A DNA stretch of 64,000 nt from Eledone cirrhosa (lineage: Eukaryota). Below the pieces are notes generated by a model that was given only the letters and a program-made list of their open reading frames with translations, had not been told where the DNA came from and searched no databases. The position numbers were made by a program, and so were the translations under genes. This document shows, piece after piece, positions 32,259 through 32,942 of this stretch. The stretch spans positions 216,690,001 through 216,754,000 of the forward strand of contig OZ024743.1 in NCBI GenBank assembly GCA_964016885.1. Direction: 5' to 3'. Each line of letters starts with the position of its first letter. The stretch's first letter is position 1.

Positions 32259-32942
32259 AAACAAATAACGAAACGAAATTAACTTTCGTTTCGATTGTAA
32301 CTCACTTTTGTATGACTGACGCTTAAACAATTAAGTTAAAAATGTACATCCACATATGTATACTGAAATACTAGTATGCATATGAATACACACACGTATA
32401 CATATGTAGATGTACCGAGTTTTTCACTGGTCACTTTACTGTGAGTGTCCAGCTATTCTGTATGTAAACACACAGACAAACCGGTTTTTAGAGTCATACT
32501 GGTTTTTGAGGAAACACCTTTCCTCTATTTTCCAGAAAGCCAGACAAGGAATATTGAACTAGTTTCGTTGTTGTTACAACTCATCAGCAATATTTACCTA
32601 TCTTCCGGCCTTTCTAGAGAATCGTAAAAGCACATATCGTTATATGCTTTTTCTATGAAAATTAGTAGTGGGCAGCCTAATTTGCATAGAGCGTGAGTAC
32701 GTACCGGTTCAACGGAGACGATAAAAACAAATAACGAAACGAAATTAAATTTCGTTTCGTTTGTAACTCACTTTGGTATGACTGACGCTGAAACAATTAA
32801 GTTAAAAATGTACATCCACATATGTATACTGAAATACTAGTATGCATATGAATACACACACGTATACATATGTAGATGTACCGAGTTTTTCACTGGTCAC
32901 TTTACTGTGAGTGTCCAGCTATTCTGTATGTAAACACACAGA
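32259..32942 (-). mobile_element. Retrozyme-like family G: ~1.46 tandem copies of a 466-bp unit in (TA)n
   Basis: ACAAATAACGAAACGAAATT at 32261 and 32727; HHR plus octamer; distantly related to family F. Confidence 0.9.
32550..32594 (-). ncRNA. Canonical minimal type I hammerhead ribozyme, family G
   Basis: AATATTG-CTGATGA-GTTGT aaca ACAAC-GAA-ACTAGT-T-CAATATT. Confidence 0.9.

Follow-up and report, generated by a model that had tools for sequence, protein, structure and literature searches.

What kind of element is an insertion that holds a ribozyme and no gene, and how did it come to lie between two (TA)n tracts? The insertion, element G, sits in a 64,000-nt stretch of the genome of the cephalopod Eledone cirrhosa (assembly GCA_964016885.1, contig OZ024743.1, positions 216,690,001 to 216,754,000, forward strand), called the window here, to whose numbering all positions refer. 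An earlier note, made from the letters of this DNA, had put it forward as a candidate retrozyme without long terminal repeats (LTRs) that carries a hammerhead ribozyme (HHR). We conclude that G is probably a non-autonomous element of the retrozyme type which target-primed reverse transcription, begun at a fixed internal point in the manner of Penelope-like elements (PLEs), placed here; the locus is best explained as a copy, dispersed and fairly young, of a retroelement of this kind. Together with a related family, F, G displays Penelope-type insertion anatomy.

The best tandem period of G is 466 nt, the second-best period reaching just 42%, and 214 of the 218 positions of the overlap (32259-32476 against 32725-32942) are the same, which bears out the near-identical tandem insert described before, at 1.47 units. 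The mismatches lie at 32283, 32294, 32309 and 32324; all four are transversions, packed into 42 of the 218 nt (P 0.022), and by pairing at least one of them apparently arose in each copy. As had been claimed, no open reading frame (ORF) of note is present, the longest one starting with ATG in the circularised unit having 19 aa on the ribozyme strand and 50 aa on the other. No LTR, primer-binding site (PBS) or polypurine tract (PPT) was found at G, the junctions of its repeats being inspected by eye on both strands, and there are no TG..CA ends. With 466 nt, the unit is over the 150-450 range of PMC7229834 and within the 51-972 bp of 10.64898/2026.07.22.740005.

The ribozyme was searched for with a loose descriptor of type I HHRs, which picked out four loci in the window, whereas 200 block-wise dinucleotide shuffles of it yielded none. 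Rfam gave no match at gathering level over the whole window. Below that level, Hammerhead_HH9 (RF02275) was aligned to 32534-32605 with 37.7 bits (gathering 52), at E 3.4e-8 on 351 bases and E 6.1e-6 on the whole window, and it was the sole ribozyme among 145 Rfam matches, the others being microRNA and small nucleolar RNA models, mostly on low-complexity DNA. All helices of HH9 but helix III are filled without a non-standard pair, and the geometry of internal loop and hexaloop is the same; G differs in a helix III 5 nt shorter and in a score under gathering. Because the 6-bp helix I, internal loop, distal stem and 4-bp helix II of HH9 are all filled, the HHR of G is canonical and not minimal. 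By published definitions, canonical metazoan HHRs have a helix I of 6 bp, a helix II of 4 bp and a helix III of 1-2 bp with a palindromic loop, and minimal ones (min-HHR) have a short helix I, a long helix II, an additional nucleotide after A9 and no tertiary loop motif (PMC4209133). The canonical HHR with a 7-bp stem I and a palindromic ACUAGU reported earlier was thus recovered on the minus strand, with a predicted N17 at 32557 in the triplet GUU, and the label 'minimal' attached to it was given up.

In the predicted fold of the G unit, the pairs of helix I have probabilities of 0.63-0.94, those of helix II 0.89-0.99 and monomeric helix III 0.00, and a double hammerhead is predicted at -9.9 kcal/mol, where two active folds formed by separate monomers come to +3.0. 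These energetics fit the established view, invoked in the earlier note, that HHRs with a short palindromic stem III act as dimers (PMC4209133, PMC7229834). Judged by folding models, the HHR of G is best explained as dimer-dependent, with a newt-like helix III of one pair. The insert holds a single HHR, the partial unit having none; the locus is therefore unable to emit a 466-nt unit RNA in cis, and its copy could cut solely in trans, with a second transcript.

The earlier treatment of G by itself was incomplete. Over its length G is ~61% identical to family F, found at three other loci in the window. Searches with the G unit (nhmmer) matched 4892-4532, 1429-1826, 1013-723, 5151-5427 and 5238-4904 (E 8.1e-20 to 9.2e-10), and pairwise alignments of G and F were identical in 255/412 and 267/441 columns, with scores of 233 and 227.5 where shuffles reached at most 112 and 99.5. 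The F unit measures 425-429 nt; F copies diverge by 5.8-12.4% from each other and the two copies of G by 1.8%. All five HHR copies of G and F retain GAAACUAGU and have an identical ACUAGU, the cleavage triplet being GUU in three, GUA in one and GUG in one, and the base of helix II is a U.U in F1 and F3 (copies as numbered in Table 1). With a covariance model built on the G/F hammerhead, the five family copies alone came out at E < 1e-6, nine further matches having E 0.18-4.3, and an Rfam search of F1 left its HHR undetected even at E 10.

Pairing was compared between the families as well. In the HHR (3 sequences only), both sides were altered in 6 of 14 pairs, 92.9% of 42 cells pair, and 3 of 500 shuffles equalled this. 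Over whole units, doubly changed pairs remained canonical in 13/19, 15/16, 15/19 and 14/23 cases of four G-F comparisons (null means 7.9, 7.0, 7.6 and 10.1; reached by 37, 0, 0 and 151 of 2000 null draws), the F unit in two of these four tests containing an accidental ~5-nt duplication at the seam. The G unit is predicted to fold at -156.1 kcal/mol (z -9.2, and -5.7 without its TA-rich hairpin), and F has z -4.9. Ten of 31 control starts were dropped for microsatellite content or overlap with G; one of the 21 usable segments had z -5.6 and the others at least -1.6. The segment with z -5.6 (9800-10104) overlaps a copy of a 190-bp repeat. Folded as a circle, the ribozyme strand reached -149.5 kcal/mol and the antisense strand -122.9, a gain of 27. 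RNAalifold, run on all seven G/F segments, recovered just three helices, because the segments overlap each other only partially. The core, intact between families 39% diverged, and the pairing kept in the HHR and over the unit would speak for constraint at the RNA level. A pairing of the 3' tail of G with its ribozyme core (70% over 27 nt), considered as an off-switch, was dropped, having no counterpart in F.

The ends of the copies bear most directly on the mode of insertion. Partial tandems occur at two of the four G/F loci, and head-to-head inverted truncated copies at two of the four. Counted from the cut site on a 428-nt unit, the 3' ends fall at ~202, 217, 266, 268 (G), 275 and 290, all six inside an 88-nt arc (P 0.002) and four inside 24 nt (P 0.009); if each locus contributes a single end, P is 0.0008-0.02. 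Those of G and F1 are homologous, ~2 nt apart or less. The 5' ends, at ~-128, -36, -27, +13, +70 (G) and +140, span 268 nt and are unclustered (P 0.56). These positions, from four loci, were assigned by alignment and are accurate to a few nt. No copy ends at the cut site, and five complementary DNAs (cDNAs) run across it. The 5' end of F5 (5149-5153) is just 13 nt past the cut site and could have arisen by run-off at the end of a cleaved RNA, followed by trimming where the copies meet head-to-head. Two independent head-to-tail unit junctions (32725/32724 and near 4897) have no ORF between the units, and since they are homologous, the unit was circularly continuous before insertion. The stretch that is repeated runs from +13 to +216 from the cut at the sister locus 4521-5153 and from ~+70 to +269 in G. 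Other copies had been expected to be tandem or permuted: the partial tandem at 4521-5153 agrees with the first, and free permutation is contradicted by the clustered 3' ends.

Among the traits of PLEs are 3' ends that stay fixed, truncation on the 5' side, partial tandems, truncated copies in inverted orientation and a tail of 30-40 bp (PMC8557442). Work with a purified PLE protein showed that it nicks AT-rich DNA on both strands, begins internally, at a stem-loop, and uses uncut RNA, being equally active with dead ribozymes (PMC11167929). Given the partial tandems of PLEs and an internal start on uncut RNA, a 1.47-mer is expected from a circle and from an uncut multimer alike. The earlier proposal that G was copied from a circular or multimeric RNA stands in so far as the cDNA crossed an intact cleavage junction and exceeded one unit; the 1.47 units are no evidence for a circle as such, and we hold an uncut multimer and a religated circle to be about equally probable templates.

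The following course of events would account for the locus. Tandem source copies elsewhere in the genome would be transcribed, possibly from an internal octamer promoter; by analogy, two hammerheads would pair via ACUAGU and cut after GUU to release monomers, which a host ligase may close into circles. The RT-endonuclease (RT, reverse transcriptase) of a PLE, most plausibly of the (TA)n-targeting Hydra clade, would nick the (TA)n tract and start at a landmark close to the subterminal hairpin, where the 3' ends are fixed and which has the cut site ~300 nt upstream. Reverse transcription then crossed the intact cleavage junction and halted after 684 nt, leaving the partial tandem seen. At two sister loci both target strands may have been primed and the cDNAs joined into the head-to-head arrangement observed there.

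Several points weigh against this account. A target site duplication, which in non-LTR retrozymes exceeds 4 bp when present, is unreadable at G, as (TA)n on both sides masks any duplication. The clustering of ends comes from four loci with ends aligned in TA-rich DNA, and TA microhomology alone might draw ends to the TA-rich part of the unit. In 64 kb, tandems are partial only (1.47 and ~1.5 units), and no array with two HHRs was found in the window. The active double hammerhead (-9.9 kcal/mol) lies above the predicted minimum, a non-active fold of -19.4 kcal/mol. GUU is a slower cleavage triplet, a statement to which our literature lookup gave no support. Since the antisense fold displays compensation as well and one of the four whole-unit covariation tests was non-significant (151/2000), pairing alone is no proof of an RNA role, antisense folding being no true negative control for covariation. 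On the side of the helper, no DNA homology was found between G/F and the PLE termini in the window, both Hydra remnants included, and proximity to PLEs says little in a window full of them. Published work adds that 8 of 9 predicted Xenopus retrozyme dimers were uncleaved in vitro, that helix III has 3-4 bp in all 25 Hydra HHRs listed in the supplement of PMC8557442, and that of five short G/F words searched for in the accessible part of that supplement, four were unmatched and the fifth had two unrelated matches in coding regions.

The same anatomy can be read in other ways. G might have been copied by rolling circle from a circular RNA of 466 nt, with priming at any point, no fixed start and no particular tie to PLEs. 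More than one unit with an intact junction, a near-identical overlap and a stable circular fold would all follow, and circles have been demonstrated for coral, mussel and axolotl retrozymes (PMC7229834). As 3' ends cluster where 5' ends scatter, and inverted head-to-head copies are a PLE trait, we give this reading a slim chance; the four inter-copy differences are neutral as to template. Alternatively, G would be the repeated 3' terminal region (pseudo-LTR, pLTR) of an autonomous PLE whose ORF, further 5', was lost by truncation. HHRs are located in PLE termini (PMC4209133), PLE copies are mainly 5'-truncated (PMC8557442), and pLTRs and retrozymes are related in Xenopus. The two independent unit-to-unit junctions without an ORF between make this origin improbable; no coding remnant adjoins any copy as a part of the unit, and animal PLE HHRs are mostly minimal, that of G being canonical.

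Very unlikely is a non-autonomous DNA element of the Helitron or Helentron type with an incidental ribozyme, in which rolling-circle read-through would yield the partial tandems. Helitrons follow known end rules, and in G a hairpin does lie ~10 nt from an end, a stretch inside is rich in TA/CA and the 5' junction can be read as A|TC, but a CTRR end is missing, the 5' ends differ at each copy, terminal inverted repeats are absent beyond internal hairpins, and neither the catalytic core and loop motif kept across 39% divergence nor the inverted head-to-head copies would be expected. If one unit had inserted and its DNA had then been duplicated locally, or if the assembly were faulty beside long (TA)n, the long microsatellites on both sides and the packing of the four transversions would fit; with a 32725/32724 junction homologous to that of the sister locus and an older, independent partial tandem at 4521-5153, this reading is scarcely credible. 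A terminal-repeat retrotransposon in miniature (TRIM) or LTR-type retrozyme, with two 218-bp LTRs around a 248-bp core, would explain the direct repeats either side of a unique middle and is largely refuted, as the sister locus repeats a different stretch of the unit, the repeats have no TG..CA ends, PBS or PPT beside them, and the HHR of G is central and of type I, LTR retrozymes carrying type III in their LTRs (10.64898/2026.07.22.740005).

Under the favoured reading, PLE-type insertion of a retrozyme-like element, the helper is most plausibly a Hydra-clade PLE. Of 27 Hydra families listed in the supplement of PMC8557442, 26 insert in (TA)n, and an octopus family is on the list; among 25 Hydra HHRs given there, 10 have U as N17, 11 have A and 4 have C (counts made here). 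The helper clade is not fixed, because Naiad and Neptune likewise favour microsatellites (PMC8557442), and (TA)n preference narrows it to these three. Mobilisation of animal retrozymes by PLEs has already been proposed in the literature.

Two Hydra-clade remnants lie in the window. The terminal copies of the first (33076-33382 and 35453-35156) are 93.8% identical, with HHR-like cores at 33231(-) and 35298(+), ~155 nt from the 3' end; the CUGAUGA at 33993(-) may have arisen by chance or be what is left of a motif. As this PLE lies upstream of G in the same orientation, read-through from it into G is possible. No hairpin corresponding to that of G was found at its 3' end. In the terminal region of the second remnant no HHR was recognised, and a hairpin ~7 nt before its 3' end, at a G-like position, was not above shuffles (z -1.0). 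The segments 35146-34137 and 60973-59938 are matched by long relatives from the database that carry DKT and YRDD motifs. CxCx5C and DKT are marks of the Hydra clade (PMC8557442), and our assignment goes by the motifs CxCx5C, DKT and YRDD together with an eye-judged likeness to Hydra proteins. Pfam scans, which covered 65 of the 134 window ORFs of at least 70 aa, gave no match for the PLE fragments, nor for four long relatives, and a word-index search with a 155-aa endonuclease fragment scored none of 92 candidates.

Outside the ribozyme, one further word is kept. The longest exact match of G and F has 17 nt (32688-32672), against 12 nt in the catalytic core, and a run of this length has P 0.016-0.043 at 58-62% identity. 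It includes ATGCAAAT, which we take to be an octamer. Seven octamers occur in the window, three of them in the G/F family, where they are present in all three copies spanning the site; the spacing from octamer to TATA-like word is 42 nt in G, F1 and F2, and the distance from octamer to cut varies by 12 nt. Since the opposite hairpin arm has diverged yet still pairs, the constraint on the 17-nt word would be sequence-specific. A and B boxes of RNA polymerase III were found in neither G nor F2, and the window showed no small nuclear RNA gene of the host from which the spacing of a proximal sequence element could be read. The promoter of newt satellite 2 includes an octamer. It is internal and of the small nuclear RNA type (PMC2220036). 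Unlike G/F with its conserved octamer, retrozymes seem promoterless and without motifs pointing to a helper according to PMC7761336. We regard the octamer as a candidate internal promoter, a post hoc lead on three copies and not a finding. That G and F are self-promoting ribozyme parasites of cephalopods, joining a POU/octamer promoter, a dimer-only hammerhead of amphibian style and a hairpin start for a Hydra-clade RT, is a bold and rather unlikely proposal. If it were true, a mollusc would have the 'promoter + dimeric hammerhead' design known from newt satellite 2, and insertion anatomy could serve to name the helper that moves an animal retrozyme.

Table 1. Features of element G, its relatives and its neighbours in the window
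Feature	Position	Strand	Remarks
Element G, whole insertion	32259..32942	- (sense = minus strand)	684 bp, 1.47 units
One full 466-nt G unit	32259..32724	-	GC 35.8%; fold predicted to branch, with roughly twelve helices
Upstream 5'-truncated partial G unit, 218 nt, pseudo-LTR-like	32725..32942	-	nhmmer model 248-465; without ribozyme, without octamer
(TA)n tract, 3' side of G	31961..32258	.	few interruptions
(TA)n tract, 5' side of G	32943..33085	.	common to 3' end of Hydra-clade PLE remnant
Extended type I hammerhead of G	32534..32605	-	Rfam HH9 alignment, descriptor, covariation
Helix I of G HHR	32594-32588 with 32556-32550	-	7 contiguous pairs, internal loop, distal AGG/CCU
Core CUGAUGA of G HHR	starts 32587	-	descriptor; GAAA after helix II
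Helix II of G HHR	32580-32567	-	4 bp + hexaloop, or 5 bp + tetraloop
Palindromic ACUAGU	32558..32563	-	monomer: one A-U pair + CUAG tetraloop; dimer: 6-bp helix III
Predicted cleavage site after GUU	32556..32557	-	N17 = 32557, from hammerhead numbering
Subterminal hairpin, candidate RT start landmark	32269..32293	-	~10 nt before 3' end; second copy 32733-32761; putative role
17-nt word same in G and F2, with octamer 32687-32680	32672..32688	-	candidate promoter element; 5' hairpin arm
TATA-like word	32640..32645	-	42 nt after octamer start; weak, AT-rich DNA
F1, 0.95 unit	1428..1833	+	E 1.2e-19; octamer; HHR with GUA, N17 = 1557; 3' end in (TA)n
F5+F2 partial tandem, ~1.5 units	4521..5153	-	E 8.1e-20; HHR with GUU, N17 = 4737; octamer at 4848
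F4, inverted 5'-truncated copy	5149..5446	+	head-to-head with F5, 4-5 nt overlap
F3, 5'-truncated copy	695..1011	-	E 5.2e-13; HHR core mutated, GUG
Short inverted copy, head-to-head with F3	1015..1076	+	E 8.5e-10 with G+F profile; low-complexity unit part, less secure
Decayed Hydra-clade PLE	33076..35453	-	thumb, CxCx5C linker, GIY-YIG remnants 35146-34137; inverted terminal copy 35156-35453; helper lineage candidate
Second Hydra-clade remnant	58995-61092	- (coding 60973-59938)	inverted terminal copy 60960-61092; related pieces 3493-4168
LINE-type RT remnant, 5'-truncated, stop-interrupted	31038..31960	-	ends at G's (TA)n tract; not part of G

Further repeats surround these features. The remnant at 31038-31960 has a YADD motif and is presumably an RT of the long interspersed nuclear element (LINE) type; Pfam gave no match for it. 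The only meaningful Pfam matches in the ORFs scanned came from a LINE at 62323-64000 (+), with an endonuclease at E 2.5e-10 and an RT at E 2.4e-6 (under cut-off), and the best named matches of its ORF 62323-63726, two of six being named, were from Octopus sinensis (56%) and Argonauta hians (42%), an indirect sign that the host is probably an octopod. Three other PLE-like pieces were seen. One, at 1825-3504, has a GIY-YIG frame (2579-3280, -), a CxxxCxxC linker and inverted repeats either side (1825-2040 and 3255-3504), with a related terminus at 54032-54304; from its motifs we take it to be of the Neptune type. The second, at 14878-15600, holds a Penelope/Poseidon-like endonuclease fragment (15043-15363, -) and an inverted terminal copy with a minimal-type HHR motif at 15493(+) that has an additional A after A9. 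The third is a lone minimal-HHR-like motif at 18395-18490(-), with its core at 18469, a GC-rich helix II of 4 bp and a long loop, and is probably a decayed PLE end. An abundant dispersed repeat of ~190 bp, resembling a short interspersed nuclear element, occurs at 5675, 7252, 10031, 10515, 18874-19373 (there as a 2.6-copy tandem), 21218, 23543, 42851, 43104, 45559, 50773 and 51941. Inverted-repeat elements lie at 230-365 and 560-694, 1262-1305 and 1383-1426, 35922-37266 and 39543-40198, and two of these elements enclose (TA)n tracts and adjoin F copies.

Among known systems, the non-LTR retrozymes of animals (PMC7229834, 10.64898/2026.07.22.740005) share many traits with G: they are non-coding, have a GC content below 50% and a canonical type I HHR, lack LTR, PBS and PPT, are strongly self-paired, insert as more than one unit and share their genomes with PLEs. 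At the level of sequence, G has the features of such an element. G and F are unlike them in that their copies in the window are dispersed, with at most one HHR each; an active retrozyme is recognised by two consecutive HHR units (10.64898/2026.07.22.740005), and the G locus, with one at 32534-32605, falls short of this. No description of a cephalopod retrozyme was found in a literature search whose scope lay outside Repbase, Dfam, subscription journals and several supplements, nor any article naming both 'hammerhead ribozyme' and 'Octopus bimaculoides'; the terms ribozyme and retrozyme are absent from the accessible text of a repeat survey of O. vulgaris (PMC13282606). The retrozyme class is already known in a mollusc, a mussel (PMC7229834).

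Several PLEs share parts of the picture. The Hydra clade (PMC8557442) has (TA)n targets, partial tandems, inverted 5'-truncated copies and GUU or GUA cut sites like G/F, and many of its HHRs have the U.U at the base of helix II that is seen in F1 and F3; G differs in lacking an ORF (RT, CxCx5C linker and GIY-YIG being absent) and in a helix III of 1 bp against 3-4 bp. The MRC1-type PLE derivatives of Chlamydomonas (PMC8557442), which had at one time been classed as LTR elements in error, are non-coding, carry pseudo-LTRs and lie head-to-tail as G does, but have 3' sequence in common with autonomous partners, and most Chlamys-clade families, unlike G, have no canonical HHR (PMC8557442).

In the form of its HHR, G resembles newt satellite 2 and axolotl HHR_Amex1, likened here by that form and not by sequence alignment: a helix III of one pair, a palindromic tetraloop, an extended helix I and dependence on dimers, predicted in the case of G, are common to them, HHR_Amex1 cleaving to 6% as a monomer and well as a dimer (PMC7229834). 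The host of G is an invertebrate, where most HHRs reportedly cut as monomers, their helix III being stable (PMC7761336). The well-supported view is of a known kind of element with three modest twists, namely an amphibian-style helix III in an invertebrate, PLE-type ends and a conserved octamer. The G/F family bears on three questions about retrozymes, which element mobilises them, whether a circle or a multimer is the template, and how they are transcribed, and it offers three handles on them, Penelope-type ends of dispersed copies that map the RT start, the (TA)n preference that narrows the choice of helper, and the conserved octamer.

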